Positions 28,382 through 64,000 of a DNA stretch of 64,000 nucleotides are shown piece after piece. Position 1 is the stretch's first letter. Each line of letters begins with the position of its first letter. The translations under genes were made by a program, and so were the position numbers. Source of the DNA: Candidatus Omnitrophota bacterium (GTDB taxonomy: Bacteria > Omnitrophota > Gorgyraeia > Zapsychrales > Fredricksoniimonadaceae); NCBI GenBank assembly GCA_903944345.1, contig CAJARJ010000012.1, positions 4,266 through 68,265 on the forward strand, read 5' to 3'. The notes under the pieces are model-generated. The model worked only from the letters and a program-made list of their open reading frames with translations, ran no database searches and had not been told where the DNA came from.

Positions 28382-28426
28382 GAACCCAAAAAGGCCGCCT
28401 CCGGTTAAAAAAACCAGATGGCGGCC
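28382..28426 (-). terminator. Rho-independent terminator after the ptsN-like gene
   Basis: Minus strand GGCCGCC-(20-nt loop with inner CCGGTT/AACCAG pairing)-GGCGGCC followed by TTTTTGGGTTC. Confidence 0.65.
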
Positions 28427-28480
28427 CGACCATCAATGCTCCCTCTGAAGGAAAAATTCTTCAGACCCCGTTTATCCGTT

Positions 28481-31467: not shown

Positions 31468-31938
31468 CTACCAGGCAATGATCTGCTTTTCCTGCATAGC
31501 CTTTTTCTCTGGGGCCGCAGGATGCTTGCTGATAGTGACCCCCTCAGCAAACATATCTCTGGGCACAGCATCCTGGGCCTGTCTTGAAATACCAGAAGTA
31601 GCAGAAGCCTTTGCTCGTGACGAAGCCACCTCCGCCGTATTTATACCTGAAGCCGCAATTTCTTGAGAAGGCCTGGCAACAGGGTCTGGCTTGGTAATGG
31701 TGATCCCGGGCGCAGGAGAAACCGGAGCCGGATGCAACAAAGCTGGTTGTCCAGCATCCGACCTTTTTAAAGGCACCGACTGTTTATCGACTATGACCGC
31801 CGAATCAGGCATCAGTTCATGAGAGCCGGCTGGCAAAGACTCAACCTCGACTTTCTTGAAAGCGAAGTTGGTCAAGAAAGGAAGCAGTAAAGCAAAAACA
31901 AATAAAACAATAAGATATAACGGTTTCGGCCTGAACAC
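31468..31938 (-). CDS. Hypothetical membrane-anchored Pro/Ala-rich protein, last gene of the pilin-type cluster
   Basis: 156 aa with an N-terminal TM helix and a low-complexity periplasmic part. It directly follows the pilX-like gene with no gap. Confidence 0.45.
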   Translation of the reverse strand: MFRPKPLYLIVLFVFALLLPFLTNFAFKKVEVESLPAGSHELMPDSAVIVDKQSVPLKRSDAGQPALLHPAPVSPAPGITITKPDPVARPSQEIAASGINTAEVASSRAKASATSGISRQAQDAVPRDMFAEGVTISKHPAAPEKKAMQEKQIIAW

Positions 31939-33267
31939 TTAAATTTCCTCCCAGGAAAGCGTAATGTAGTCTCCAGTCGTCGGCATATATGGCGGTGGGG
32001 CACCAAGAAGCCGTGCGTCATAACCGTAATCCTTGGAATAACCCGTTGCTTTTGTTCCGGTACGACTGTCAAAAGTACCAACTGGTCCGCGTTCTTTCTG
32101 AATAATGCCTCCATAAACAGTCAAAGTCCCACGGGGAGATCCAAGCCAGTAATTTTCAAGGAGGAACGAGTCTCCCATAGACATAATACAGGAATTGATT
32201 TCCATATTTGTCGGAGCCGCATCGTCAATAACAACATCTCTTTCGGCAATAATTCCCAAAGTATCATCTGAAGCAGGATCCGTTCTGGGATCGTCTGCAT
32301 ATACCACACTGCTGGGAATAACCACGTCTTTCTGGGCTCCGACCGTAAGACGGCCATTAAGGGTTCCGGATATCGTTAAACTCCCCCCGTTACGGCAATT
32401 ACTCCCGTCGCAGACAACAAAAAGAGCACCATTGGCAGGAATAGGCATGTTCCTGTTTGTCCATCTGTTATAACTATTGGTGACATTCATTGTTCCGTTG
32501 GAGTTAAGCACAATGGTCGTATTCCCCCGCAAGGAAAGCCCTCCGCTGGAAGCAGCAGAACGCAGTCCCAAAGCCTGTGACGGCATCGTAGTGACTTCCG
32601 CGCCAAAAGTAAAGCCTTGCTGGAAATCCGGCTCGTCATTCGGGGCATTGGTAGTCTGTTGAAGATTGACTGCGGAGCCATTATTATAAAACTTGATGTA
32701 CGTATCAACCGACTGCGCCTGACTTTCAAAAACCGGATCCTGATTGATATTGAAATGCCCATTGGTGTGTGTCGGACCGTTAAGACGGTCGCCGGCGGTA
32801 AACCAGACATTCGTTCCTTCAAACAGTTCCTGATCGGTAAACCACAAATAACGGGCATAATTGTCAACCTGCAGATATTTGACGAGCACCCGGGAGGAAC
32901 CAGAATGTGTCCCGGTGGCAGTGACTTTATATCTGCGGATATTCCCGGTTGCTCCCACAAGACCAAGATCAGTGATTGTGGCACTATAAGTCCCGCCTCC
33001 CAGCGCCTGCGTTCCTCCCCATGGATTGGTATAATTTCCAGTTGGAGGTGCGGACTGAGCCCGCAACCAGACAACTGCTCGGGCAAGCCCGGATTCCGCC
33101 AAACTAAACGACTTGGCTCGTTGCGCGGAACTCATGGCCAAAAGATTCTGACTCACACCGGTGGCCAGAAAAGCCGCCCCGTAAACCACCAGAAGACTGG
33201 TGATAATCAGACTAAACGCCAGGGCGATTCCTCTGTTATTCCTAAGCCGGTGCTCAATACATCGCAT
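31939..33267 (-). CDS. pilX: PilX-like type IV pilus minor pilin/assembly protein (PilX_N domain)
   Basis: The N terminus MRCIEHRLRNNRGIALAFSLIITSLLVVYGAAFLATGVSQ matches the PilX N-terminal hydrophobic segment. 442 aa with a Gly/Thr/Asn-rich body. Confidence 0.65.
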   Translation of the reverse strand: MRCIEHRLRNNRGIALAFSLIITSLLVVYGAAFLATGVSQNLLAMSSAQRAKSFSLAESGLARAVVWLRAQSAPPTGNYTNPWGGTQALGGGTYSATITDLGLVGATGNIRRYKVTATGTHSGSSRVLVKYLQVDNYARYLWFTDQELFEGTNVWFTAGDRLNGPTHTNGHFNINQDPVFESQAQSVDTYIKFYNNGSAVNLQQTTNAPNDEPDFQQGFTFGAEVTTMPSQALGLRSAASSGGLSLRGNTTIVLNSNGTMNVTNSYNRWTNRNMPIPANGALFVVCDGSNCRNGGSLTISGTLNGRLTVGAQKDVVIPSSVVYADDPRTDPASDDTLGIIAERDVVIDDAAPTNMEINSCIMSMGDSFLLENYWLGSPRGTLTVYGGIIQKERGPVGTFDSRTGTKATGYSKDYGYDARLLGAPPPYMPTTGDYITLSWEEI

Positions 33268-33269
33268 AA

Positions 33270-33788
33270 CTAGTTCCTCATCCTTACCTTAAGCTGCGAA
33301 GAATCCTGCATGGTTCGGCCCGCATCGGAAATCTTGCTGGCTGTAATATCAATCTGCAAAATGTCGGCCGGGGAATTTGACCGGGTAAATTGCAGGCTCG
33401 AGATGTTTCGAGCCACAACCGAGGTTGTGCCGGCAAAAGTTCTGGTGATCTGACCTGAACCGTCGAGAGCATACACAATATCAGCAGACCACTCGATGTA
33501 ACCTGAAGCATCTAGAATAGTGCCATCATTATTGGTATCCTGAGGAATACGAAAGGTCAACGAATTCGAAGAGGCTCCGCTGCCGAGACTGATCTGGGCC
33601 GGGCGGGTCTTTTTAAGATCCAGTTCCATCCTGGAAAATGATCTGACCAGCTCCTGGCGCAACTGCACAGACACATCACTGGTCAGCCAGTTCTTGGCTC
33701 CGATATCCATAATCTGGAACGATCCAAGCATGAGGATAACCAGAATGGACAAGGAAAGCAGAAGTTCTACCAGCGTCATACCCTTCAT
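33270..33788 (-). CDS. Prepilin-type N-terminal cleavage/methylation domain protein (minor pilin or pseudopilin)
   Basis: MKG|MTLVELLLSLSILVILMLG is the class III signal and methylation motif. 172 aa. Confidence 0.7.
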   Translation of the reverse strand: MKGMTLVELLLSLSILVILMLGSFQIMDIGAKNWLTSDVSVQLRQELVRSFSRMELDLKKTRPAQISLGSGASSNSLTFRIPQDTNNDGTILDASGYIEWSADIVYALDGSGQITRTFAGTTSVVARNISSLQFTRSNSPADILQIDITASKISDAGRTMQDSSQLKVRMRN

Positions 33789-33791
33789 GTG

Positions 33792-34310
33792 TCATCCATT
33801 CGAAATCAGGGTTACAAGTTTTACCGGTGACTCAAGAATTCCGTCTGCATCAGCACGTTCTCCGGTATCCAGCCGGCCATTAAGATTGGTATCCCCGCCA
33901 ATAATTCTGTTCCCCTGCCGCCAGCTGAGAGTAATGGTGACCTTGACCAGCTCGGAATTGCTGTCATCTACAAACACCGCACCCCGGCTTTCAGGAATAT
34001 CGTTGAGAACAAAAGTTACCTGATCGTAGTTATCGACAAGATTGACAAATGAACTGGCCCGAATCTCTTCCATAAAAGAAGCAGCGGCATTGGCGGCTGT
34101 ATTGGTATTTCGGGCAATACTTATCAAGGCGGCACAGGAAATAAAGGCCCCGACAATAGCACAAAGGACGCCAGCCAGAATAGCAGTAGCTACAAGCACC
34201 TCGACAAGAGTGATTCCGCGACATGATGCTCGGCAAGATTTCTGAAAGAAGAAAAGGATGCTCACGGGGCCTCCATCGCACGAAGTCAGGAAAGTCGTAC
34301 GCGTGCACAA
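33792..34310 (-). CDS. Prepilin-type minor pilin or pseudopilin with an unusually long leader
   Basis: RG|ITLVEVLVATAILAGVL is the prepilin motif, preceded by a 32-aa leader if the ATG at 34310 is used. No closer in-frame ATG, GTG or TTG is present. Confidence 0.6.
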   Translation of the reverse strand: MCTRTTFLTSCDGGPVSILFFFQKSCRASCRGITLVEVLVATAILAGVLCAIVGAFISCAALISIARNTNTAANAAASFMEEIRASSFVNLVDNYDQVTFVLNDIPESRGAVFVDDSNSELVKVTITLSWRQGNRIIGGDTNLNGRLDTGERADADGILESPVKLVTLISNG

Positions 34311-34526
34311 GGATCCCGGCCCTGATTGCCTGACCCCTGCTACAAGTCTAGCTTCCGTTGCAAGGTAAAATCAAGGCTATTCTCATAAACTCGAATGGCG
34401 CCATAGCCGCTCAATAACCACGAAGCCGCTTGTACCAATAGATGGGCTTGAATTCAACTCAGCATACAACAATGTTAACGTCGAGGAAAGGTGTGATTCA
34501 GGCAGGATTTAACTCTCCCTGCACCT

Positions 34527-37349
34527 TTACAGGCCCAAGAACACAAACAATGTTGTATCGGCCGGGCGGATATCAATTATGAAGGGAGCAAGCCCTGCAG
34601 CGAAACGGATTGCCTGGGCTTTCACGGGATCAAACACGATACTATTGCCAACTTCTTGAGTCAGAATCTGCAAACCTGATCTGTCAGGGGCAAGATCAAT
34701 GCCGCCTTTCTGATCCGGAGAAATCTTGGACTCCTCGTGGAGATGCACTCCGGAATCATCCACACTTATCCATGTATAAGTCTGCTCTCCCGGAGTATCG
34801 TGGCGACCCCATTCATTGCAGTTTGACCATGTGCCGGAGTTGACATACTGCCAGGCAGTCTCCCCCTCAAGAAGCATCCCCAGAAAACCCTCCCCCGGCT
34901 TCTGGGGTTCATGAGTATGGCCATAAACAATATAACGCTTCCATTGCTCAACAGGAATGTCCTTAAACAAATCCGGGTAAAGATACGGCAGAAGCTCGTC
35001 CCATAACTCGCCCAACTGTCTGATCCTTTTCTTCTGGGCACTAACCAGAAACAGCTGGAACCCGGAAACATTCTTTATCATAAAGGTCATAAAAGGGAAA
35101 AACATATCATTCTCGACAAACTGATTTAGAGTCCCCCAATGACGGTTTGACAACGCACTCATGAAGTTATCAAGGACACTTCCCCCTGCCTGTTTATTAT
35201 TAAACTTGTCGGGAACATGTCCGTGTTCAAAGTGCAGGATCTGACCTGCGGCAGGACGGACAATAACCACATACCGGCTGATAATCATTCTGTCTTTCCG
35301 GTCTTTATTCACCACTTCAAGAAGTTTATGTCCGATATCATCATTGAGGTCCGCTATCATTTTCTGTACATACAACACAGCCTTCGCCAGGGGCATCGAA
35401 AGGACAGAGTCGTCAAACCAGACATATCCTTCTTTGTCCATAACCGGGCCATAAGGCAGCTTCGCCCGGGTAAGCCTGGCAATATCTTTGGCCTTGGCCG
35501 CCCGGATAATGTTCTGAAGTTGTTGCGTGCGGGCAAAATCGGTAATCTCCAGATTTTGAGCCATCTTGGCCAGATGACGCCTCTTTTTTGCGAGACGTTC
35601 CTTGAGGATAACATCATCGTGATTACCTGCAACATAAAACACCTTGTCACAACGGGCTAAAGCTTCAAAGAAAACCTGATAGGACTGATAGACATCGCCG
35701 TAGCGATTCTTCTGAAGCTCGAGGATATCGCCATTGAGCACAACCACCTGTTTCTCTTCTGCCGCAATGCGCAACAGGTCAAGCAATTCCGGTAAACGCC
35801 CGGCAAAAGCGTCATGCGAATCTCCTGCCCCCAGGTGAATATCAGAAAGATTCAGAACCTCCTGATCGGTTCTGTAAATAAAGGTTCTTTGCTTTTTGCT
35901 CCAGCGCTTTACCTCCTCAAGCAAGGCCTCCGCCCGCTTGGCAAGCCTGGGATGCCGCTTCATTCGTTTGCCGAAAAAAGCATCCACTTTCCCGTTATGA
36001 ATGGAGAACAATATGGACTCCTTCTTATACTTCTCCTGCCAGAACCAGCCACCCGCAATCGCCTGCTGAATAAAACGTACGACTTGCTTCTTCTTGTCAC
36101 CGGTAACCCCCAGCCACTGGTCTTGCGATCCGTTATGAAAAAGCATCAAAGGGTTCTTTTCGGCAACCTTGCGCCAGGCTCTGGCTGGCGAAGAAGATAG
36201 TGCCTCGTCTGGCTCTGCCGACTGCGAAAAATCAGCCCTGTCGTCCGGAACAATTTGCATGGCCGTGCGAATGATCATGGTTCGCCCGGAAAACCCGGGA
36301 AGGGATACATCCTCGGAAAAAGGGCGAATATCCATAGCGGCGTCCACTCCCAGATCAAATCCTCCGGAAAAATATTTTCTCGGCAGTGGCTGACCGCCAG
36401 AAGAATCCGGATCTTCTGCAATATGCGTATAGGCACCCGTATTAAATCCCTGAGCATACCGCTTCCATATGTCATGCGGTTCTTGCGGATTGGCAATACT
36501 TACTCCGGCAGTTTTGGCGCGATCTGCATACTCCTGTGACAACACAGACTGCTTCATTTTGATCTTGTACCAGGCGGCAAGAATCAGGGAATGATACACC
36601 TGACGTAATTGGGCAAAATAGCTGCCTTCATTAACCTCTTTTTCTATAACCGGGATAACGACCTCGCGTAAAACAGAAACAGCCATAGAGGAAATTTCAG
36701 AAGTGGTATCAACGCTCGCAGCGTTATAATCCCTGTCAAGGATCACTTCAAGCCGGGCTTCGGCCACATACGCCGCTCCGGCATTTTCATAGACCACAGC
36801 TTTGCGGGGAACAATCCAGACCTTATTGATCAGCTCTAATGGAATATCGGTGGTGCCGTACTTTTGCTGTGCCAAAGCATATATCTTTTGCCAGAACTTC
36901 TCACCAGTCTTGTCTTGCGGGAACAACAAGGCCGTCGTTAACTGTTTAAGCAGATAATCCTGGGCCAGAAGATCGCGTCCCATCTCCGTCAGGCCGAAAG
37001 TTGGAGGAATAACACGATTTTCTTCGTACGGGCTCAGGTTAACCCACAGATCATGCTCGGGAATGGTCAAAGCGGCCAAAAAGTACTTAAGCAAACGGGT
37101 GGAGTCAACCCTGATATCATTAAATGAAATATTGGCATCCCCTTTATCAAGAATGAAATCAAACCTTAAGGGTTCATCCGGATAAATTTTTATGCCTTGA
37201 AGAAGGGGGGGATTAAGTGCCTGGCTTGGGGCCGACACCTGGCCGGGAAAAAGGTCGACTCCTGCCTCAAGAGGAGACAAGTTAACAGACACAAATACCA
37301 ACAAAATGATAAAAGTTAAGAACTTCATCACAAAAACCGGGAATGCCAA
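34527..37349 (-). CDS. Large secreted protein, paralog 1: novel conserved N-terminal domain, calcineurin-like metallophosphoesterase module and conserved C-terminal tail
   Basis: 940 aa with a signal peptide MKFLTFIILLVFVSVNLSPLEA. The N-domain motifs LRFDFILDKGD, WVNLSPYE, TEMGRDLLAQDY, GTTDIP, LAAWYK and RKYFSGGFD are shared with the 851-aa and frameshifted paralogs. The metallophosphoesterase motifs are SDIHLG, NGDILE, GNHD, HFEHGH and GHTHEP. The tail is GGIDL...AGLAPFIIDIRP. Confidence 0.8.
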   Translation of the reverse strand: MAFPVFVMKFLTFIILLVFVSVNLSPLEAGVDLFPGQVSAPSQALNPPLLQGIKIYPDEPLRFDFILDKGDANISFNDIRVDSTRLLKYFLAALTIPEHDLWVNLSPYEENRVIPPTFGLTEMGRDLLAQDYLLKQLTTALLFPQDKTGEKFWQKIYALAQQKYGTTDIPLELINKVWIVPRKAVVYENAGAAYVAEARLEVILDRDYNAASVDTTSEISSMAVSVLREVVIPVIEKEVNEGSYFAQLRQVYHSLILAAWYKIKMKQSVLSQEYADRAKTAGVSIANPQEPHDIWKRYAQGFNTGAYTHIAEDPDSSGGQPLPRKYFSGGFDLGVDAAMDIRPFSEDVSLPGFSGRTMIIRTAMQIVPDDRADFSQSAEPDEALSSSPARAWRKVAEKNPLMLFHNGSQDQWLGVTGDKKKQVVRFIQQAIAGGWFWQEKYKKESILFSIHNGKVDAFFGKRMKRHPRLAKRAEALLEEVKRWSKKQRTFIYRTDQEVLNLSDIHLGAGDSHDAFAGRLPELLDLLRIAAEEKQVVVLNGDILELQKNRYGDVYQSYQVFFEALARCDKVFYVAGNHDDVILKERLAKKRRHLAKMAQNLEITDFARTQQLQNIIRAAKAKDIARLTRAKLPYGPVMDKEGYVWFDDSVLSMPLAKAVLYVQKMIADLNDDIGHKLLEVVNKDRKDRMIISRYVVIVRPAAGQILHFEHGHVPDKFNNKQAGGSVLDNFMSALSNRHWGTLNQFVENDMFFPFMTFMIKNVSGFQLFLVSAQKKRIRQLGELWDELLPYLYPDLFKDIPVEQWKRYIVYGHTHEPQKPGEGFLGMLLEGETAWQYVNSGTWSNCNEWGRHDTPGEQTYTWISVDDSGVHLHEESKISPDQKGGIDLAPDRSGLQILTQEVGNSIVFDPVKAQAIRFAAGLAPFIIDIRPADTTLFVFLGL

Positions 37350-37370
37350 ATTAAATAAAACTTACTACCT

Positions 37371-39926
37371 CTATTGGAAGATGGAAACAGCCGGATCAAC
37401 TATCCGGTCGATCCCGATAATCCGCGGTGAAAGTCCTGCTCTTACGGCCGGCAGAGTGGCTGAATCGATATTAAAATGAATCGGTCCACCATCATTAGCG
37501 ATATCCAGCTTCATATTGCGAGTGGACATATCAATACCACCCACCGGCTCAACCGCCTGACTCGCATCGGCTATTCTTTTATGCAAAACATCCTGACTCC
37601 AGTGATCCTTACTGTCTTTCACTGACCGATAATCGTTAGCGATGGCCTCAAGAGACTCTGCAATCGTTCTGTCCCACCCACCCCATGTGCCCGCAAACTC
37701 TGGAATCAATCCCCTTGAATATTTCAACGCCAGATCATACGGATTGGAATTTGCGTATTCAACAAGATCCGCATCGACAATCAAAACTTCCGGAGTCCCG
37801 TCCTGGGCGGACTGAAGAATAAAATTCGCAGCTCGGGGGTCATTTATCAGGATTCCTCTGCCTACAAGTGTACGGAACAGACGGATAAGAGCCTTGATAA
37901 TGTCCTCGTTCATTGTACCGGCGGCAATCACCTTATCCAGAGAGTCACCTGACATCCATTCCACAGCCAGAAGTTCTCTGCCATTGGTAGCCTTGATCAC
38001 TGCAACCCATGCCGGACCAACTCCCTCTTGTTCGACTATTCTGAAACCGTCTTTAATCTCCTTAAGAACAGTATCCATCCTGATCGGCGCCCGAATAGCC
38101 ATATGCTGGTTTTTATAGACATCATGGTTACCGCCAGATCCGACATATTCCTGCTGAACCCCTTTCATAATCAAGGTTTTTTCTCTTCCCTCAACCTGAA
38201 CGGGTTTCGACCGGCCCAGATGAATCAGCTGGGAGAACCGCTTGAGAGAAAAATTCATTAAAACACGCTGAAGCTGTCGTTCTAAAGAGGAATCATCTAT
38301 CTCCAGCACAACCTGATGAACACCAGGCCCCAGAGCAGGCAAAACCAGGTCATTAAGAAGAAGATAGTTCATCGGTTGTTGCCAATATTGACGCCAGAGT
38401 TCTTTATTGGTTATCTTCCTGATAATGATCATTTTCTCACCATACTGCCCGGCATACACGTCTTCGTTATCAGAAGACTTCAATAATCTGGTCTTCTCGA
38501 CATTATCTGTCACAAAACCACGTAAAAAACGCCGCCTTGTATTCTCAAGATCTTCATTAAAAGCAGCCACAGATGTCCCGAGCGAATCAAAAAAAGTCGC
38601 CATGCCCGGACTAGTGCGCTGATAAAGAAAGGTTTTAACAACTACCTGGCTTAACCTGAGAATATAATCCGGGGTAGCCTCTCTCCTTGAAATATCCGGT
38701 TTCTGCGCCATATCTGTCGATATATCCGAACGGCTGTCCTGAGGCTCTACCAAAACTCCTACTCTTATCAACCCTTGCGGATTATTAGCAAAAAGATTGC
38801 TGGAAATCTCCTGTAGGGATGCACGTTCCATCGCTTTATCGAAGTCCGGCGCAAACCCGCCCGAGAAATATTTGCGCAATAGCGGGTCACCCGAAAAAGG
38901 ATCCGCCTCTTCTTTGATATAACTAAAAACACCCTGCCTGAAAGCGGCCATGTATTGCTGGTAAATTTCATTAAGTACTTTGGGATCTCTAAGATTAACT
39001 CCATCCGTCTTGCCTTTGTCAACGTACTGATCGTACAAGATACCTTCCTTGACCTTGCGCTTGTACCATGCCGCCAACGCCATGGAGTAATAAATCTTGC
39101 GCAACAAGGCGAAACTTTCACCATCATTGATTTCTTTCTCGATAACAGGAAGAATAATTTCACGCAACCCGGGTTGAACCTGATTTTCTTCGGCCTCGTT
39201 ATGGACACTATTGCCAGATTGCACCTTCTCCGCCAGATAATCGCGCTCCAGCGCGACTTTCATCCTGGCATTCGCCAGCATGGCTATATTTCCATTCTCA
39301 TAAAACGCCGCTTTGTCCGGGCTGATCCAGACTTTATTGAAAACATCAAACGGAATATCAGTAGTTCCAAAGGCTTCCTGCGCACGCCGATAAACGTCAG
39401 TCCAGAATTTCTTCCCCAACGGTGCCTCGGGGTATACAAGAGAAGCCATAATCTGTTTGAGCATATAATCCTGAGCCAACAGGTCACGCCCCATCTCGGT
39501 ACGGGCAAAATTTTCACTAACAATCCGCTTATCTTCATAAGGAGAAAGGTTGACCCACTGCTCCTCTTCCGGAACAGTCATTGCTGCCAGAAAATATTTA
39601 ACCAGTCTCTCGGATTCAGCGGTCAGCGCCTCACCGGAAAGCAGCTCGTCTCCCTGATCCATAAAGAAATTAAAACGAAAAGGATTATTGATGTCCACCT
39701 GAATGCCAACCAGGCAAGCGGGCTTGAACCCGTGGCTGACATCAACCATAGATCCCGGCAACGGCAAGGCTACGCCTTCAATGGCATATACCGGCAAAGA
39801 ATTGATGAATAACACCTGAACAATAATAATATGAAATAGAATGCGAAACATCAGTTTCTCCCAAACATTCAAACTTTCAGAATTATGAAACTTACCACCC
39901 GATAATAAATATAATATATATATCAA
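37371..39926 (-). CDS. Large secreted protein, paralog 2: same N-terminal domain and C-terminal tail, with a putative kinase-like internal module
   Basis: 851 aa with a signal peptide. The N-domain is FRFNFFMDQGD, WVNLSPYEDKR, TEMGRDLLAQDYMLKQ, GTTDIP, LAAWYKRK and RKYFSGGFA. The internal region has a Gly-rich loop VGSGGNHDVY, ILINDPRAANFIL and LIVDADLV, which suggests a kinase-like fold. The tail is GGIDM...AGLSPRIIGIDR. Confidence 0.8.
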   Translation of the reverse strand: MIYILYLLSGGKFHNSESLNVWEKLMFRILFHIIIVQVLFINSLPVYAIEGVALPLPGSMVDVSHGFKPACLVGIQVDINNPFRFNFFMDQGDELLSGEALTAESERLVKYFLAAMTVPEEEQWVNLSPYEDKRIVSENFARTEMGRDLLAQDYMLKQIMASLVYPEAPLGKKFWTDVYRRAQEAFGTTDIPFDVFNKVWISPDKAAFYENGNIAMLANARMKVALERDYLAEKVQSGNSVHNEAEENQVQPGLREIILPVIEKEINDGESFALLRKIYYSMALAAWYKRKVKEGILYDQYVDKGKTDGVNLRDPKVLNEIYQQYMAAFRQGVFSYIKEEADPFSGDPLLRKYFSGGFAPDFDKAMERASLQEISSNLFANNPQGLIRVGVLVEPQDSRSDISTDMAQKPDISRREATPDYILRLSQVVVKTFLYQRTSPGMATFFDSLGTSVAAFNEDLENTRRRFLRGFVTDNVEKTRLLKSSDNEDVYAGQYGEKMIIIRKITNKELWRQYWQQPMNYLLLNDLVLPALGPGVHQVVLEIDDSSLERQLQRVLMNFSLKRFSQLIHLGRSKPVQVEGREKTLIMKGVQQEYVGSGGNHDVYKNQHMAIRAPIRMDTVLKEIKDGFRIVEQEGVGPAWVAVIKATNGRELLAVEWMSGDSLDKVIAAGTMNEDIIKALIRLFRTLVGRGILINDPRAANFILQSAQDGTPEVLIVDADLVEYANSNPYDLALKYSRGLIPEFAGTWGGWDRTIAESLEAIANDYRSVKDSKDHWSQDVLHKRIADASQAVEPVGGIDMSTRNMKLDIANDGGPIHFNIDSATLPAVRAGLSPRIIGIDRIVDPAVSIFQ

Positions 39927-40015
39927 TAAAATGAAAGGGAAGCGAATAAAACACTTCGAGTGTCATAATATGGCATAATCATGAATGATATGCGCTTAGG
40001 CGTCATTAATCGGAT

Positions 40016-40834
40016 TTACGATTGGCTTCCGGAAACAAACCAGCGGATTAGATCGGCAGAAAGTGATCGTCTTTGCGGGACTTTCGGCAAGGCATTGGCT
40101 TTAAACCATCCGGCTTCAGCTATCTCGACATTGTCTATCCGGATGGAACCGCTGAGATAATCTGCCGTAAAACCAATCATAAGACTATCAGGAAAGGGCC
40201 ACGGTTCACTTTTGAAATAACGAATATTCGTGAGCGTAATCCCCACCTCTTCCATCACCTCACGTCGGACTGCCTCTTCCAGCGACTCGCCCGGTTCGAC
40301 AAAGCCGGCCAGAACACTGTACATTTCTTTATCAGAGAAATTATGTGCCCGTGCCAGAAGGATCTGATCCTCCTTGACCACAGCCACGATCACTGCAGGG
40401 GATATTCTTGGATAATTGACAGAATGACACTGTGGACATTGGCGAGCATGCTCATCGGACAAAAATATTGTAGGAGTGCCGCAGCGTCCACAGAAACGAA
40501 AATTGCTTTCCCAGGAGGCAAGCTGCCGTGCGTACCCGGCAACACACGAAAGTTCGGCATCACTCTCCAGGTACACGTCTCTCAGGGCAGACCATTCGTA
40601 ACCATCTAGAGGAATCTTCTGCGTTGCAGTCGCACAATAACAAGGCTTATTGTCCAGAAAACCGATAAAGTATGCATCGCTGAAACCGGAAGCCGCAGCC
40701 TGCTGCGGAGTGAGCAGAGGAAAGGTTTTGAGTTCTCCCTCAAGACGAACAAGAACCTCTGCTTCGACAAAGCAAAAATACCAAGCCTGGTCAAACAACT
40801 GATCCGGCTTTTGCGTTGACTTGAGAAAGCGCAT
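40016..40834 (-). CDS. nudC: NADH pyrophosphatase NudC (Nudix plus zinc ribbon)
   Basis: 272 aa with a zinc ribbon CGRCG...CPQC and the Nudix box GFVEPGESLEEAVRREVMEEVGI. Confidence 0.85.
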   Translation of the reverse strand: MRFLKSTQKPDQLFDQAWYFCFVEAEVLVRLEGELKTFPLLTPQQAAASGFSDAYFIGFLDNKPCYCATATQKIPLDGYEWSALRDVYLESDAELSCVAGYARQLASWESNFRFCGRCGTPTIFLSDEHARQCPQCHSVNYPRISPAVIVAVVKEDQILLARAHNFSDKEMYSVLAGFVEPGESLEEAVRREVMEEVGITLTNIRYFKSEPWPFPDSLMIGFTADYLSGSIRIDNVEIAEAGWFKANALPKVPQRRSLSADLIRWFVSGSQS

Positions 40835-46387: not shown

Positions 46388-48668
46388 TCAATAATTCTGT
46401 GTGTCACTAATTATTTTATACGGATCTATAGAGATAATAACCGGTGAGAATCCGGCAGCGTTCTGCATCTGCTGAAGCTGCTCAGAGGTCAGGTCTACCT
46501 CGATTGCAGTGCTATTATTCCGTGTCTCAAACTGGGCATTGTCGGGGTTCAGGTTAATACCACCGACTGCTTCCTGCCCAGGCAGAGAAGACAAGGGCTT
46601 TTCCATCAAAATTCCCCATTCTTCATTCATCCTCCGGGACAACTCCCAGGATTTCTGCAACAAACTTCCTCTATTGCGGCTCTTGAGCAGCGCAAGAACT
46701 TCTTCCGCATAAAATTGCTGATCCTTATCAAGAACAAGTGGTTTATACCCCAACATTCTATACAAAACAAAATTGGCTAATCCGTGAGGCAAAGTGCTGC
46801 CAATTACAAGAGAATCATAACCAGACTCGACTGCCAGTTCCTCGAGAGACTTAAGAATACTTTTAAATAATGCGCCCGCGTAAGGGAAAGATGGATACAT
46901 CTGTGACGGATACAACATGCGTTCCTCGTTTCGCAAGCGCTCCAGCAACAACTGCACGTTTGTATCATCGTCTTTCACCTTCAGAGCCGATTCAATTTGC
47001 GTTTGTCTCAGGCCCACGCTGGCCTCAGCAAAAGAAAGAAGAACTTTGCGATCCTGCCAGTCAAACTGCGGTAAAGCTTGCATAAACACGCCCTTTAACT
47101 GCTCCAAAACTTTCTCCAAATTACGCTTTCCCCACTCATCTGACCCCATCCAGATTTTCTGCGTCAGGATTACAGGTGACGAGGTGGTCATCTCCAGATG
47201 GGCCCGGCCGATGATTAACGAGTTGCGATCAAAACCACGACCATTCAATAAATTAAATTGGATAAAAACACCCTGATTATTCCTGTAGACAAGATCGTAA
47301 CTGTCGAAATCATCGGACTGGATTATCTCTCCCAGAAGCGTACGGGTTGTAAGCGTTCGCCCGGGGCCTCTTAAGATATCAACTTGCGGCTCATCATAAT
47401 ACTGCGACAATATCCCCTCCAGACGCTCTTTCTGACGTTCAATCAGCCGGCTAAACTGCTCTCTATCCGCTCTGGAACGTTTAACCTTCAGTTTGGGTAA
47501 AACAGACTCCTGAGCCGGATCTCCTGGCAGAACAGAGGTCTCTTCACGAACAATCACCAGTCTGTCAGCAGCACTCGGCCCCAGGTCAACCGGCCATACG
47601 TCCGATTTTACTGTCAGAGAACTATCCATTGCCCAATCAATACCGCCGGAAAAATATTTTCTGACCAACACTTCGTCAAACAATGCATCAGGTTCTTCCT
47701 TAATAAAATCATACGCGCCCTTGCGGAAGGAAACGACATAATCCTTCCAAATACGGTCCACTTCCCCGGGGTCTGGAATATTTATTCCGGCAACCTTATT
47801 CCGGTCAACGTAAACAGCGGACAATAATGATTGTCTGATCTTTCGTTTATACCAGGCGGCAAGAATCAAAGACTGATAAACCTGTCTGAGCGTCGCAAAG
47901 TTCTTACCTTCATTAACCTCTCGCTCCAGTTCAGGAATGACCATCGTACGTAAAGCTTCCTCCATCATCATATGATCCGGACTTGCGGTTTGGGGCACCG
48001 CACTTTTTTCTTGTGCCAGATAATCACTTTCCAGCTTAACCTCCAAGTGAGATTCGGTTACATAAGCCAGCCCCATCTCGCCATTCTCAAATACTACAGC
48101 TTTTCCAGGAACAATCCAAACCTTGTTCAACGTATCAAGCGGAATATCCGTAGTGCCATATTTTTCCAGGATCCGGGCGTAAATTCTCTTCCAGAATACT
48201 TTTCCAATCTCCCCTTCAGGGTTAAGAGTCTTTGCGGTGATTTGCTTGAGAAAATAATCCTGCACCAGTAAATCTCGCCCCATCACAGTCTGCCCAAAGG
48301 CTGGGGGAACGATGCGATTTCTTTCATATGGACTCAGGTTAACCCAGAGGTCATTTTCAGGAATTGTCAGGCTGGCAAAAAAAATATTTAATCAGACGGG
48401 TTGATTCACTTTTGATCTGGTCATTAGTAATTCTTTCATCGCCTTTATCAAGAATAAAATCAAACCTGAGCGGATTTCGAGGATATACCCTAATTCCTTT
48501 TAATACAGGCGGATTGAACGCCGGACTTAAAGACACCACCTGACCACCGGGAGGAGTCAAAATCGGCTCCCCGGCATACAGAATAACTGGGCTCAAAACA
48601 TGTGCCAGAACTATCCAAATGATGACAAATTTTCTTAGAAACATGAAGGAAAGATACCTGACCAACAC
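46388..48668 (-). pseudogene. Large secreted protein, paralog 3: frameshifted in an A8 homopolymer, with its 3' end overwritten by an element terminal repeat
   Basis: The N-terminal ORF 48357-48668 (signal peptide, then LRFDFILDKGDE...KYFFCQPDNS-stop) and the ORF 46388-48286 (MMGRDLLVQDY...) are joined by a +1 shift inside a run of 8 A (48377-48384). With 7 A the reading is KYFFASLTIPENDLWVNLSPYERNRIVPPAFGQTVMGRDLLVQDY, collinear with paralogs 1 and 2. The last 9 codons (KIISDTQNY-stop) are encoded by the element TIR at 46391-46415. Confidence 0.7.
46391..46415. repeat. Solo terminal inverted repeat of the 133-bp element (inverted left end)
   Basis: AATTCTGTGTGTCACTAATTA matches 21 of 21 of the reverse complement of the element's left end (AATTAATTAGTGACACACAGAATT). 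No internal element sequence follows. Confidence 0.6.
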
Positions 48669-61960: not shown

Positions 61961-63985
61961 TTATTCCACCGCCTCGCTCGACTGCTTCCAACGATCCCAC
62001 GATGAGCGCCTACCGCACTTTAGGCATTCGTGACCAGGGCCGATGTATGGCACGTCCAAAACATCCAAGAGGCGGAATACTCTCACAAGCTCAGAACTGC
62101 TATGCTGAAAGTACCGATAGCCACATTCCGGACATACCACTTCCACGTAGTTCGGATTTCGGTCGGAACCGCCCAACCGGTTGGCCGTGACGCCAGATGA
62201 CAGCAGATCCAAGTAGAGCACCTTCTCCTGACACTGAAGGGTAACTGTCATGATGGAATCCATGTAACGTATCGGCGACAACACCATGTGTTCTTTAGGC
62301 GGGGCGTAGTTCACCCTGCCGTCGGCTACCTCACTGAATGTCAGAATGCACTCTGCTTCAACAAGTTGCCCTTGCCCGTCCGTTTTGGTCACTCGAAACA
62401 CGTTGACGGCTGCAACCCCCAGCTTGCTATCCACCTCCTCTGGCTTTATTGCCAAGTTTTCGTATGCCACAGGCGAATCAGTTCTTCGGATCGATGGGTA
62501 TAAAAAGCCTGAATTGCCAGGAAAATCGAAGTAGGTGTCAATGATCTCATTGGTAAGCTTGTAATACTTCTCGTCAGTGCGCGTCAGAGTGAAAAGACCA
62601 TTGAGGAACTCATTGGTTCTCACAAGCGCACGCTTTCTCTCCTCGGTGACCGGGATGTCTGCTATTTCGGCCAGCATTTCGATGCCGATCGGCGCCACGG
62701 TGAGTGACATCCCGTCCCGAATAACGTAGGAAACCATAGTGAAAACTTCACCTATATGCATCTCGCCCACCTCAAAGATTGGTGCGATGGGATTTGTCGA
62801 CGCGTACAGCAAGGGTGCGTGCGGCCTGTTGCATCTGCCGTACGACTTGCATGACTGTGCAGGCGGATAAAAGAGATCAGCCACTTGGTGGAAGGCATCA
62901 ACCCCATGATTCTTCCTGATCCTGTAGAAACTCATCTGCCCCGGGGACACGTTAACACTGCCAGCAACTACTTCCGGCATGATCTCGACAAGAATCTCAC
63001 GGATCGTTGGCCATGGCTCCGCTCTATCAAGGCAGTCGTTGAAATCTGCGATTGCCACCTCTCTGCGCCGAACTGAAATTGGGAGTGGGAATTTCACATC
63101 CGCGCTCGCACCCGAACTGGCTAGAAGTTGTACTATTTCAGTATATCCGTTAAGAGTGGCAATCTTGAGCGCAGTAAAACCGTTATGGCAAGGCAGGTCT
63201 GGGTTTGCTCCAGCCTTCAATAGGAACGCGGCGACTTCGTACCGACCCCAGCAGCATGCGGTCATCAACGCTGTAGAACCCCTTTTATTCGTCGCATTCA
63301 GATACGCGCCGTTCTTGACGAGAAGTTCGACTACGCCGACATGCCCGAATTGAGAGGCAACGTGAAGAGCCGCGCTTTGGTTTTCTTTGGTCAGACGCCT
63401 GCCAACATCTGCACCATTACTCAGAAGAAGACGCACGACACTCTCTTGTCCGCCCTGCGATGCCATGAACAATGGGGTTGCACCGTCGTTCCGGAGTGAC
63501 AAGTCAACTTTGGCGCCGAGAGCAAGCAGGAGCTGTGCGGTCTCGAGTCTATTCTCCTGGCACGCTACGGAGAGAGGCGTTGCTGTGCCCATGTCAGGGT
63601 CTGCACCGGCTTCGACCAACATGCGGACCACTTCCGAATAGCCATTCTCGCTGGCGATATACAGCGCCGTTAGCATTGCTACACTTATCATCCGTATATT
63701 TGGGTCTACCTCCCGCTCGACGAGGTCCTTACGATATTGTGCTCCGTCTACTTCTGCCTCAATATATGAAAGACCGTTTGGATCAGCCCCGTTCCGGAGC
63801 AGGAGCGTTACGATCTCAGAGGAATTCGCCTGCGCGGCTGCATATAAGGGCAGAAATTTGCCGGAATGGGTTTCGTAGATTTCGTTGACAATCCCTGGAT
63901 TCAACGTAAGGGCAACACGCACGCCCGTGGGGTTCCCTTGGAGAATCGCTTTTATCAACGCGTCAGTGGCAAAACGTTTCATCAT
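61961..63985 (-). CDS. Ankyrin-repeat protein fused to a RES-domain (NAD-targeting toxin-like) module and a C-terminal zinc ribbon
   Basis: 674 aa with about 8 ankyrin repeats (TPLxxAxxxGHxxVVxLLLxxGAD pattern). It then has a RES-like core (SFYRIRKNHGVD...GRCNRPHAPLLYASTNPIAPIFEVGEM...YPSIRR) and ends in CPECGYRY...CLKCG. Confidence 0.7.
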   Translation of the reverse strand: MMKRFATDALIKAILQGNPTGVRVALTLNPGIVNEIYETHSGKFLPLYAAAQANSSEIVTLLLRNGADPNGLSYIEAEVDGAQYRKDLVEREVDPNIRMISVAMLTALYIASENGYSEVVRMLVEAGADPDMGTATPLSVACQENRLETAQLLLALGAKVDLSLRNDGATPLFMASQGGQESVVRLLLSNGADVGRRLTKENQSAALHVASQFGHVGVVELLVKNGAYLNATNKRGSTALMTACCWGRYEVAAFLLKAGANPDLPCHNGFTALKIATLNGYTEIVQLLASSGASADVKFPLPISVRRREVAIADFNDCLDRAEPWPTIREILVEIMPEVVAGSVNVSPGQMSFYRIRKNHGVDAFHQVADLFYPPAQSCKSYGRCNRPHAPLLYASTNPIAPIFEVGEMHIGEVFTMVSYVIRDGMSLTVAPIGIEMLAEIADIPVTEERKRALVRTNEFLNGLFTLTRTDEKYYKLTNEIIDTYFDFPGNSGFLYPSIRRTDSPVAYENLAIKPEEVDSKLGVAAVNVFRVTKTDGQGQLVEAECILTFSEVADGRVNYAPPKEHMVLSPIRYMDSIMTVTLQCQEKVLYLDLLSSGVTANRLGGSDRNPNYVEVVCPECGYRYFQHSSSELVRVFRLLDVLDVPYIGPGHECLKCGRRSSWDRWKQSSEAVE

Positions 63986-64000
63986 TATTGACCTTCTGTC

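Follow-up and report, generated by a model that had tools for sequence, protein, structure and literature searches.

Two adjacent genes of a Candidatus Omnitrophota bacterium, A and B, and a third copy, C, located in the same window (the whole 64,000-nucleotide stretch of contig CAJARJ010000012.1 that was analysed), encode members of a large protein family that appears to have gone undescribed to date. Intact members follow a four-part plan, in which a Sec signal peptide precedes an N-terminal domain of about 300 aa ending in RKYFSGG (N-domain), a cargo, and a C-terminal tail of about 60 aa. We consider, with moderate confidence, that these proteins may be exported modular effectors whose conserved ends would serve as handling modules; the placement of signal, N-domain and tail around a changing enzyme module has the look of a scheme for export or effector delivery that would be new. 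An earlier note on this DNA had proposed a new class of multidomain exoproteins, a fair description because A, B and C carry canonical Sec signal peptides, as predicted from their N-termini. Within the literature library that was searched, no paper mentions the GGIDL motif of the tail or the family defined by the N-domain and the tail.

The two ORFs are real and co-directional on the minus strand, at 34527-37349 (A, 940 aa from a TTG codon) and 37371-39926 (B, 851 aa from a TTG codon). Their description as giant proteins was not borne out: A likely starts at the ATG at 37328 and B at the ATG at 39851, giving 933 and 826 aa, and exactly these two products are present in public assemblies. So delimited, ORF A (34527-37328, minus strand; family HMM E 2.8e-152) is laid out as a predicted signal peptide (MKFLTFIILLVFVSVNLSPLEA, cleaved before GVD; 37263-37328), the conserved N-domain up to LPRKYFSGG (36360-37262, from sequence comparison and an AF2 model), a metallophosphoesterase cargo (34707-36359), and a tail (GGIDLAPDRSGLQILTQEVGNSIVFDPVKAQAIRFAAGLAPFIIDIRPADTTLFVFLGL; 34530-34706) placed by tail comparison. 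ORF B (37371-39851, minus strand; family HMM E 4.7e-141), separated from A by 42 nt, has the same layout around a kinase-like cargo, with a predicted signal peptide of the Sec/signal peptidase I type (MFRILFHIIIVQVLFINSLPVYA, cleaved before IEG; 39783-39851), an N-domain running from the mature N-terminus to LLRKYFSGG (38856-39782) without Pfam or NCBIfam match, and a tail (GGIDMSTRNMKLDIANDGGPIHFNIDSATLPAVRAGLSPRIIGIDRIVDPAVSIFQ; 37374-37541) placed in the same way as that of A.

The cargo of A contains a calcineurin-like metallophosphoesterase region (35586-35858; PF00149, E 9.3e-9, 36.4 bits versus a cut-off of 21.5) and also matched phrog_1649, a metallo-phosphoesterase. The signature of this enzyme class consists of DxH, GD, GNH[DE], H and GHxH, and the translation of A contains the metal-binding motifs DIHLG, NGD, GNHD, EHGH and GHTH. 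One public source names A 'LpxH', and the product of B stands in public assemblies as 'hypothetical protein'. The LpxH identity was rejected, no NCBIfam LpxH model having matched; only generic phosphoesterase models were hit, all below threshold (PdeM, 24.8 bits versus 150; SbcD; YfcE). In B, the cargo gave a sub-threshold match to the ABC1/atypical-kinase-like family (37770-38000; PF03109, E 0.0064, 16.1 bits, below the cut-off of 22.9) and no match in a sequence search of the PDB; INDPRAANFIL and IVDADL in its translation may be read as kinase-like motifs. The cargos of the window had no relative among the other family members.

The N-domain is a genuine and strongly conserved unit of about 300 aa common to A, B and C (A versus B, 43% identity over 385 aa, E 3e-98). 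The motifs quoted for it in the earlier note are present, except that B reads FRFNFFMDQGD instead of LRFDF..LDKGD, and its lack of a nameable family was upheld in Pfam and NCBIfam. Neither the N-domain nor the tail matched Pfam, NCBIfam, PHROGs or PADLOC, and single-sequence and profile searches of PDB sequences with the N-domain also returned nothing. The AF2 model of the A N-domain (pLDDT 74.8, pTM 0.68) predicts a structure rich in helices with two long beta-hairpins. A Foldseek comparison of this model, the fold check that had been called for, recognised no known fold, with a best and non-significant E of 0.058 against the PDB and nothing against BFVD, so that any role given to the domain is a guess. 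The top PDB matches, all non-significant, were alpha-pore-forming toxins of the ClyA family (NheA, MakE, SmhA/B, Cry6Aa, YaxB), which share long helices and a beta-hairpin with the model; a ClyA-type toxin would be expected to show an elongated helical bundle bearing a hydrophobic head or beta-tongue, together with significant fold similarity. Recent duplication or gene conversion among A, B and C was considered and rejected, since DNA identity reaches 66-69% in patches and the longest exact shared run is 19 nt. The N-domain of A is nearer to homologs in other genomes (up to 56% identity) than to that of B (43-45%).

The shared signal peptide claimed for the three copies is likewise predicted, and the same pattern extends to the family. 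A hydrophobic core was found in 113 of 117 family N-termini and a small-x-small site in 104 of the 117, mostly A/V-x-A followed by Q, D or E (AxA cleaved before Q in the family plan). Among the members listed, the AxA-type site commonly lies 32-35 aa ahead of the RFDF motif, and a TM-like segment follows the N-domain in only 7 of 66 complete members. Class III signals have a short basic leader, cleaved between G and F/M-T-L-x-E, and then a hydrophobic helix (Pfam N_methyl); the leaders of A, B and C are of type I instead, with AxA-type sites. The host is diderm, as indicated by AcrB, OEP, MdoG and Lol-type genes within the window.

The tail, absent from the earlier note, is the second common module (GGIDL...PVII.I.P...FLG) and opens with an invariant GGID. 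Comparison of 69 tails with Pfam and NCBIfam at E<=1 gave scattered noise only and no CTD model. The smallest member, P0017, consists of a signal peptide, N-domain, 15-aa linker and tail and nothing more; it was modelled in AF2 with docking of the tail on the N-domain in mind, and its tail reached a pLDDT of 30-45. A function as sorting signal would be conjectural for the tail, which could not be modelled. A and B both combine the three family features, namely the type I signal peptide, the N-domain and the GGID...PVII.I.P tail.

The family comprises at least 1298 N-domain clusters, and an exhaustive search of representatives with the tail profile returned 3347 tail-bearing cluster representatives (a word-indexed database gave 9 short fragments and was uninformative). 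The tail match lay at the C-terminus or within about 25 residues of it in all 150 representatives listed. Species-representative genomes contain no fewer than 576 loci with family genes, and single MAGs among the best 80 have as many as 7 of them; the genes are multi-copy and almost wholly confined to Omnitrophota, and not centred on Desulfobacterota, where homologs had been expected. In a sample of 79 loci (94 family ORFs, 1.09 Mb), essentially every complete ORF has the end of its N-domain at aa 350-380 and a tail that begins 58-90 aa before the C-terminus. Pairing of the two modules is near-obligate in family ORFs: the single-module ORFs examined are nearly all halves of genes broken by a frameshift, an in-frame stop, an IS element or the locus end, L067 15741-17336 being set apart from these. 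Counting against the effector reading, the N-domain is absent from 13 of 47 long tail-bearing representatives, though these may include broken genes. No neighbouring gene family of any kind is conserved around the family loci, which therefore point to no partner machinery.

Compared in pairs, the N-domains are at least 42% identical, the median being 55%. Cargos range from 300 to 3000 aa and were similar by BLAST in only 6 of 1225 pairs. Their recognisable domains include methyltransferases, HATPase_c, Glu and Ala dehydrogenases, radical SAM, Pkinase, GGDEF, PP2C, His phosphatase, GNAT and TPR/HEAT, with a MafB19-type (MafB19/dCMP-type) deaminase in one member, and are mostly cytoplasm-type enzymes dependent on ATP, SAM, NAD, GTP or Fe-S.

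Omnitrophota are widespread, uncultured bacteria of ultra-small size that are suspected to live as predators or parasites of other microbes, and attention has so far gone to their giant genes and pili. Two sources regard predation or parasitism as their likely lifestyle and credit them with T2SS-like, Tad and type IVa pilus systems (PMC10066038; bioRxiv 10.1101/2023.11.21.568195); neither describes the family of N-domain and tail. If the proteins are exported effectors, they would cross the inner membrane by the Sec route, after which machinery common to all members would handle both constant ends, whether by moving the proteins across the outer membrane or attaching them to it, by passing them to another cell, or by freeing the cargo through proteolysis. 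Effector activity would then reside in the cargo, most likely inside the cytoplasm of prey or host, given that its cofactors are cytoplasmic and that a predatory or parasitic lifestyle is suspected for Omnitrophota. For the window, this would make the delivered cargo of A a metallophosphoesterase, that of B a kinase-like domain and that of C, which is inactive as written, an unrecognised domain. Passage through Sec in the unfolded state would be odd for radical SAM enzymes or NAD-dependent dehydrogenases, because cofactors would have to be loaded afterwards. A more specific version, which we regard as unlikely, takes the N-domain and the GGIDL tail as recognition or processing handles of a new Omnitrophota-specific pathway by which each genome would supply prey or host cells with dozens of cytoplasm-type enzymes translocated through Sec; the cargo may in that case be freed by cleavage at the flanking invariant Gly-Gly pairs, after FSGG and before GGIDL. 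Were such a pathway to exist, the family would be the main effector arsenal of a phylum of nanobacterial predators or parasites.

Thousands of members, many copies per genome, export signals, two conserved modules of no recognised fold and swapped enzymes together make the family a candidate effector list. The N-domain and tail profiles are two sequence handles by which members can be found in any metagenome, and the family offers a concrete route toward an export or sorting machinery. It would also bring at least two new domain families into databases and correct misannotations such as 'LpxH' for A.

Several known systems share part of this plan. T9SS cargo proteins (CTD; TIGR04183/PF18962) likewise have a Sec signal peptide, diverse domains, a conserved C-terminal module and many paralogs per genome, and their genes are dispersed and unlinked to the machinery. 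They are, however, without a common 300-aa N-terminal domain, and the family tail, at about 60 aa, is shorter than their CTD; since family tails match no Pfam or NCBIfam family, none matches a T9SS CTD model, type A or B. T9SS itself is not known outside Bacteroidota and their relatives (Fibrobacteres-Chlorobi-Bacteroidetes group). Proteins of the TpsA/CdiA type also place a conserved N-terminal domain of 250-300 aa after a Sec leader and vary in their distal parts, the TpsA domain being the recognition module for an outer-membrane transporter. The TpsA domain is a beta-helix, whereas the N-domain model is helix-rich with two hairpins, and, with no Pfam or NCBIfam family matching the N-domain, a TPS domain is not recognised in it. 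Family genes have no TpsB or Omp85 gene beside them, the window neighbours being NUDIX, PPIase and pilin genes; unlike in TpsA/CdiA proteins, the variable part is internal with a conserved tail after it, and there are no immunity genes. Classical and inverse autotransporters (T5SS), whose translocator is a 12-stranded beta-barrel at the C- or N-terminus, were rejected: no barrel or translocator was matched in Pfam, the N-domain is predicted to be mostly helical and the tail is only about 60 aa. Compared by function only, the Legionella Dot/Icm and chlamydial effectors offer a likeness in their many modular kinases, phosphatases, methyltransferases, acetyltransferases and repeats per genome, and in the host-dependent lifestyle of their producers, which is thought to apply to Omnitrophota as well. 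They differ in using T3SS or T4SS signals, without a Sec leader, a common 300-aa N-domain or a 60-aa tail, and in their delivery, which for the family is a proposal.

Among the other explanations, the earlier note had made A and B pilus or T2SS tip adhesins or substrates, PilY1-like and tied to the adjacent minor-pilin cassette. This cassette (31468-34265, minus strand; Pfam and public annotation), the downstream neighbour of A and outside the family, consists of two prepilin-like genes (33792-34265 and 33270-33788), to which N_methyl matches downstream of A are limited, a DUF4900/PilX-like gene (31939-33267) and a small membrane protein gene (31468-31938). The 216-nt gap reported ahead of the first pilin gene holds for its longest TTG ORF and becomes 261 nt for the called 157-aa gene. 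A and B are indeed co-directional and 216-261 nt upstream of the prepilin-prepilin-DUF4900 block, and a scan of 33700-40100 for promoters and terminators, with counts within about 1.2 sd of the shuffled expectation, placed no site, and hence no terminator, in the gap between A and the pilin genes. The arrangement recurs in one other genome (L058), where the same position is taken by a family member whose cargo and upstream genes differ. Yet this is the only such block downstream of a family gene among the 79 loci sampled (at L067 the pilins are unrelated and divergently oriented), and copy C is not near pilins. In the reverse direction, the cassette is conserved in Omnitrophota and solitary in all four other genomes (L086-L089), where other genes lie upstream of it and neither N-domain nor tail genes occur within 8 kb; its homologs were collected by protein search and contig look-ups, a metagenome scan for the DUF4900 protein having given 2 short loci. 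PilY1/PilC proteins are recognised by a C-terminal beta-propeller (Pfam Neisseria_PilC), often an N-terminal vWA domain and a position in a minor-pilin operon. They resemble the family as large exported proteins, beside minor-pilin-like genes in the window only, but neither propeller nor vWA domain occurs in A, B or C: a Pfam scan at E<=1 returned Metallophos (A), weak ABC1 (B) and noise (C), and no PilY1/PilC. With leaders of type I and not class III, a PilY1-type role is very improbable, and the linkage counts go most of the way to refuting it; partnership with the neighbouring pilin genes is not conserved in the family.

It is doubtful, though less so, that the proteins are enzymes resident in the envelope, exported and kept in the periplasm or on the surface of the producer, with ends that anchor, scaffold or oligomerise head-to-tail and no delivery. 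A signal peptide and a diderm host fit this equally, the two conserved ends could bind one another or a shared component of the envelope, binding could also be the task of TPR, HEAT and ankyrin-type cargo, and dedicated secretion genes are not linked; however, most recognisable cargo depends on nucleotides or cofactors, with no obvious supply of substrate or cofactor outside the cytoplasm, and typical periplasmic functions (hydrolases, binding proteins) were not found among it. The conserved ends and hypervariable middle, the deaminase mentioned above, the tandem arrays of three copies each at L014, L064 and L072 and the frequent pseudogenes and IS insertions would suit a polymorphic toxin system for inter-bacterial competition, with a trafficking region and swappable toxins as in CdiA, Rhs or MafB. 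In such systems the protein ends in the variable toxin and a cognate immunity gene comes next, whereas here a conserved tail closes the protein and the variable part lies inside it, no small immunity-like ORF lies between or after the genes (42 nt between B and A) and no neighbour is conserved. The cargo families are mostly not classical toxins, and the absence of Pfam or NCBIfam matches on the N-domain or tail extends to known toxin-trafficking domains, which makes this explanation improbable. A shade less probable still are enzymes tethered to the cytoplasmic membrane by an uncleaved N-terminal anchor and active inside the producer: the cytoplasmic type of the cargo would agree with them, but the hydrophobic core has basic residues ahead of it and a canonical AxA site behind it at a near-constant distance, a pattern that predicts an N-in, C-out topology or cleavage and so leaves the remaining protein outside, and a second TM-like segment able to return the cargo inside was found in only those 7 of 66 members.

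A phage origin of the family was also considered, three IMG/VR contigs containing members, and was rejected, no Pfam-recognisable phage gene being present in the 5-kb flanks of two of the three, L092 and L094. Disrupted members are frequent, as pseudogenes or through IS insertions, and might point to a family in decay and no longer actively used. Copy C, reported at 46388-48668, is present at 46388-48644 on the minus strand and, as stated, shares with A and B the N-terminal hydrophobic leader and the conserved region up to RKYFSGG. It has signal peptide, N-domain and tail but is frameshifted and split in two (family HMM E 9.5e-94 and 1.9e-24 for the halves): the 5' piece (48357-48644) holds the signal peptide with the first part of the N-domain, and the 3' piece (46388-48283) the rest of the N-domain, an unrecognised cargo and the tail (46391-46564). 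The +1 frameshift lies in an 8-T homopolymer (48377-48384), where seven Ts would restore KYFFASLTIPENDLWVNLSPYE, and C is inactive as written. An independent JGI assembly is identical at this run, with the same frameshift, and the 631-aa product of the 3' piece is recorded in 5 contigs.

The three paralogs in the window, ORF A, ORF B and copy C, belong to a multi-copy family found across the phylum Omnitrophota, whose members are all built in one order: leader, N-domain (a conserved region of about 300 aa ending in RKYFSGG), variable cargo and tail (a conserved C-terminus of about 60 aa starting with GGID). The genes of this family are unlinked. ORF B runs on the reverse strand from 39926 (longest start) or 39851 (ATG start) to 37371, and ORF A, on the same strand, from 37349 or 37328 to 34527, with a spacing of 42 nt. 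Their ATG-initiated products, of 826 aa for B and 933 aa for A, are identical to public-assembly records. The third member, copy C (46388-48644, reverse strand), lies 6.5 kb upstream; the earlier note was right to count three copies, except that a +1 frameshift within a T8 run (48377-48384, reverse strand) divides C into two pieces. Since this run is identical in an independent JGI assembly, the frameshift is not a local sequencing error.

Comparison of A with B confirmed the shared N-terminal region described in the earlier note, with 43% identity across the first 385 residues (E 3e-98) and no significant similarity between the middles. The motifs quoted for this region were recovered, B departing from them in small details. 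A second module, overlooked in that reading, is formed by the last 55-60 residues, which are also common to the paralogs (GGID[LM]... [FH][DN]... AG[LF][AS]P.II.I). These two conserved regions divide each paralog into a leader, an N-domain extending to RKYFSGG, an unrelated middle and a tail. DNA identity among A, B and C is 66-69%, in patches only, and the N-domain of A is nearer to homologs elsewhere than to that of B. Judged from these comparisons, the three are old paralogs and a recent duplication is ruled out.

The N-domain of A matched 1298 protein clusters at E<=1e-3, the best 120 of which are 44-59% identical to it. Named clusters are almost all 'hypothetical protein' from Candidatus Omnitrophota/Omnitrophica MAGs, and their recurring locus-tag prefixes indicate many paralogs in each genome. 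Scanning species-representative genomes gave at least 596 matches, at least 576 of them confirmed; the confirmed loci nearly all bear Omnitrophota titles, along with a few bins labelled Planctomycetales or Elulimicrobium. Among the best 79 loci, up to seven come from one MAG, and arrays of two or three family copies are common. Because the family matches are nearly all from Omnitrophota, and the orthologs of the neighboring pilin cassette agree, the window organism belongs to this phylum and not to Desulfobacterota, as had been guessed. Full-length members were also found on three viral-classified IMG/VR contigs (L092, L093, L094), which may in fact be cellular and wrongly assigned. Within 5 kb on either side of the members on L092 and L094, Pfam recognised no phage gene; radical SAM/SPASM, Lcl_C and HEAT domains were found there, along with several ORFs without any match.

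To define the architecture, ORFs were called in 79 loci and searched with N-domain and tail HMMs. The great majority of ORFs with a family leader have an N-domain ending at residue 350-380. In virtually every complete gene the tail starts 58-90 residues ahead of the stop codon, and middles vary in length between about 300 and more than 3000 residues. A natural minimal member of 438 aa (P0017) is made of leader, N-domain, a 15-residue linker and tail, and nothing else. ORFs that seem to depart from this plan are for the most part products of gene breakage or of truncation at the end of a locus: tail-only ORFs are mostly found at a locus edge or directly 3' of N-domain-only ORFs, with L067 15741-17336 as a possible exception, and the junctions of split genes show frameshifts beside G7 or G11 runs, in-frame TAA/TAG and two gaps of 0.7-1.4 kb. 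Three N-domain-only proteins of 350 aa (P0043, P0020, P0087) are likewise 5' halves, the breaks being a TGA, a G-run at the FSGG codons and an IS insertion.

An exhaustive tail-profile search retrieved 3347 cluster representatives, including 1464 at E<=1e-10, and in all 150 of those listed the match lies at the C-terminus or within about 25 residues of it. The N-domain is present in 34 of the 47 listed matches of at least 600 aa, among them copy C itself (P0259), whose N-domain match is partial only. The remaining 13 have neither N-domain nor leader, and most of them are probably 3' halves. The tail matched none of the models in Pfam and NCBIfam, including those for sorting signals of the T9SS and CTERM types. 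Family genes are often disrupted at homopolymer runs, by in-frame TAA/TAG/TGA or by IS insertion (copy C; L073, L012, L090, L056, L004, L091). The run is T8 in copy C and TCGGGGGGG, coding FSGG, in L090, and other members have G7 and G11 tracts. These disruptions could reflect decay, or phase variation at contingency loci.

The N-domain is also unrecognised, as the earlier note had stated: it matched no family in Pfam or NCBIfam, even at E<=1, nothing in PHROGs or PADLOC, and no PDB sequence, with either a single sequence or a 46-sequence profile. The AlphaFold2 model obtained from the 46-sequence alignment (pLDDT 74.8, pTM 0.68) predicts two long beta-hairpins packed against about seven long helices. 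Foldseek comparison of this model gave no significant match in the PDB (best E 0.058, TM 0.12-0.15), the top non-significant ones being ClyA-family pore formers, and nothing in BFVD.

N-domains have a median pairwise identity of 55% (minimum 42%); among the middles, BLAST similarity was detected in only 6 of 1225 pairs, and Pfam assigned 58 different families to 50 of them. The cargo includes SAM methyltransferases, radical SAM enzymes, Glu/Leu/Phe/Val and alanine dehydrogenases, GNAT, HATPase_c, Ser/Thr kinases, a Kdo-type kinase, GGDEF, PP2C, histidine phosphatase and TPR/HEAT domains, with a MafB19-type deaminase in one further member. ORF A carries a calcineurin-like metallophosphoesterase with a complete set of metal-binding motifs; the name 'UDP-2,3-diacylglucosamine pyrophosphatase LpxH' given to it in one source is probably an over-annotation, support being limited to the generic calcineurin-like phosphoesterase domain. 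ORF B, publicly named 'hypothetical protein', contains an atypical-kinase-like region matching Pfam below threshold, and no domain was recognisable in the cargo of copy C. Searched against other members, the three middles have no relatives, save one weak match for C.

Both cargo junctions bear an invariant Gly-Gly, which closes the N-domain as FSGG and opens the tail as GGID. The motif [DNE]xA[MQ] occurs within 14 aa after FSGG in 39% of members (216 N-side junctions) and within 14 aa before GGIDL in 39% (217 C-side junctions), against a background of 3% in random cargo 14-mers; window examples are 'GVDAAMD' in A, 'DFDKAME' in B and 'GIDWAMD' in C. Speculatively, these elements could be processing sites or the boundaries of cassette exchange. 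Near-identical short peptide insertions ('VIARSEATKQSQ', 'DSRFRGND', 'SRLRGND') break conserved regions of several homologs, after the RFDF..GD motif in P0042 and P0046 and in the tails of L013, L067 and P0148, and resemble a small repetitive DNA element in translated form. P0042 also harbors, around residues 440-460 where its cargo begins, a twin-arginine-like motif internal to the protein (SRRKFLKTASLGGAAALPA), which gives the impression that a gene bearing a Tat leader was captured between N-domain and tail.

The N-termini of the family point to export: of the 117 compared, 113 contain a strong hydrophobic core and 104 a small-x-small site (mainly AQA, VYA, AYA, VQA, VHA, then Q/D/E), with the cleavage-type site located 32-35 residues upstream of the RFDF motif in most listed members. 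With basic residues ahead of the core and no lipobox cysteine, the family leaders are predicted to be textbook Sec/signal peptidase I signals. A further TM-like segment was found in only 7 of 66 complete members, so that the mature protein is expected to be located, over its full length, outside the cytoplasm. Genes in the window for AcrB, an outer-membrane efflux protein, MdoG and a Lol-type ABC system indicate a diderm cell.

We propose that, after Sec export, the N-domain and tail would be recognised by the cell, whether for attachment to the surface, passage across the outer membrane, delivery or processing, and that the middle would be the payload. As this payload consists overwhelmingly of enzymes needing ATP, SAM, NAD(P), GTP or Fe-S, it would most plausibly act in the cytoplasm of another cell. 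We give about an even chance to this interpretation, in which exported payload proteins, with their constant ends as recognition modules, act inside other cells. Such delivery is consistent with the proposal that Omnitrophota live as predators or parasites (PMC10066038; bioRxiv 10.1101/2023.11.21.568195); the two studies contain no description of the N-domain/tail family. The main rival, that the proteins remain in the envelope of the producer with their ends serving as anchors or oligomerisation modules, seems to us improbable; polymorphic toxins, cytoplasmic-anchored enzymes and pilus adhesins are each weaker explanations.

Like this family, T9SS cargo, TpsA/CdiA and other effector families place conserved handling modules around swappable payloads; tested for membership of the T9SS cargo and TpsA/CdiA groups, the family fell outside both. 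No mention of the two modules was found in the literature searched, and they appear to be new. The family may, with a low but real probability, mark a new secretion or delivery pathway.

The earlier note had read the paralogs as pilus- or secretion-associated exoproteins in the position of a PilY1-type adhesin. The pilin cassette 3' of ORF A (31468-34265, reverse strand) encodes prepilins of about 157 aa and of 172 aa, a DUF4900/PilX-like protein of about 435 aa and a small membrane protein (about 145 aa). A scan of 33700-40100 for promoters and terminators gave hit counts close to those in shuffled sequence (within about 1.2 sd) and no site in the gap between A and the cassette. In the 1.09 Mb of the 79 family loci, searches by regex and phmmer found the pilin-pilin-DUF4900 block at one locus only, L058 (2047-7115), where the family member directly 5' of the orthologous cassette has other cargo and other upstream genes (RND pump, outer-membrane factor); this adjacency could stem from a hot spot of insertion common to both genomes or from an association peculiar to the lineage. 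L067 encodes three unrelated pilins in divergent orientation. Conversely, the DUF4900 protein has hundreds of orthologs in Omnitrophota (55-69% identity), and the four-gene cassette is intact on four long contigs (L086-L089), downstream of an ABC transporter, methyltransferases, a GDSL lipase or a divergent gene, with no N-domain or tail sequence within 8 kb. Copy C is flanked by transporter genes, and clustering of all neighbors of family genes revealed no recurrent partner. The single locus, the family-free cassettes and the lack of a recurrent neighbor together make the pilin adjacency a local feature and not a property of the family. The PilY1 analogy was rejected on this non-conserved linkage and on the domain content of A, B and C.

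The pilin cassette itself is a free-standing conserved unit across Omnitrophota, with variable genes upstream and downstream. Elsewhere in the window, an ankyrin-repeat protein of over 678 aa (61961-64000, reverse strand; Ank E 1.6e-47) is cut by the window end, and no tail was detected in it; its N-terminus, where an N-domain may be present, lies beyond; ankyrin repeats are frequent in host-associated bacteria. Just downstream of a PTS EIIA gene, an nhaA-I RNA, a riboswitch-type cis-regulator, was identified at 28416-28468 on the reverse strand (Rfam 45.1 bits versus a gathering threshold of 37).
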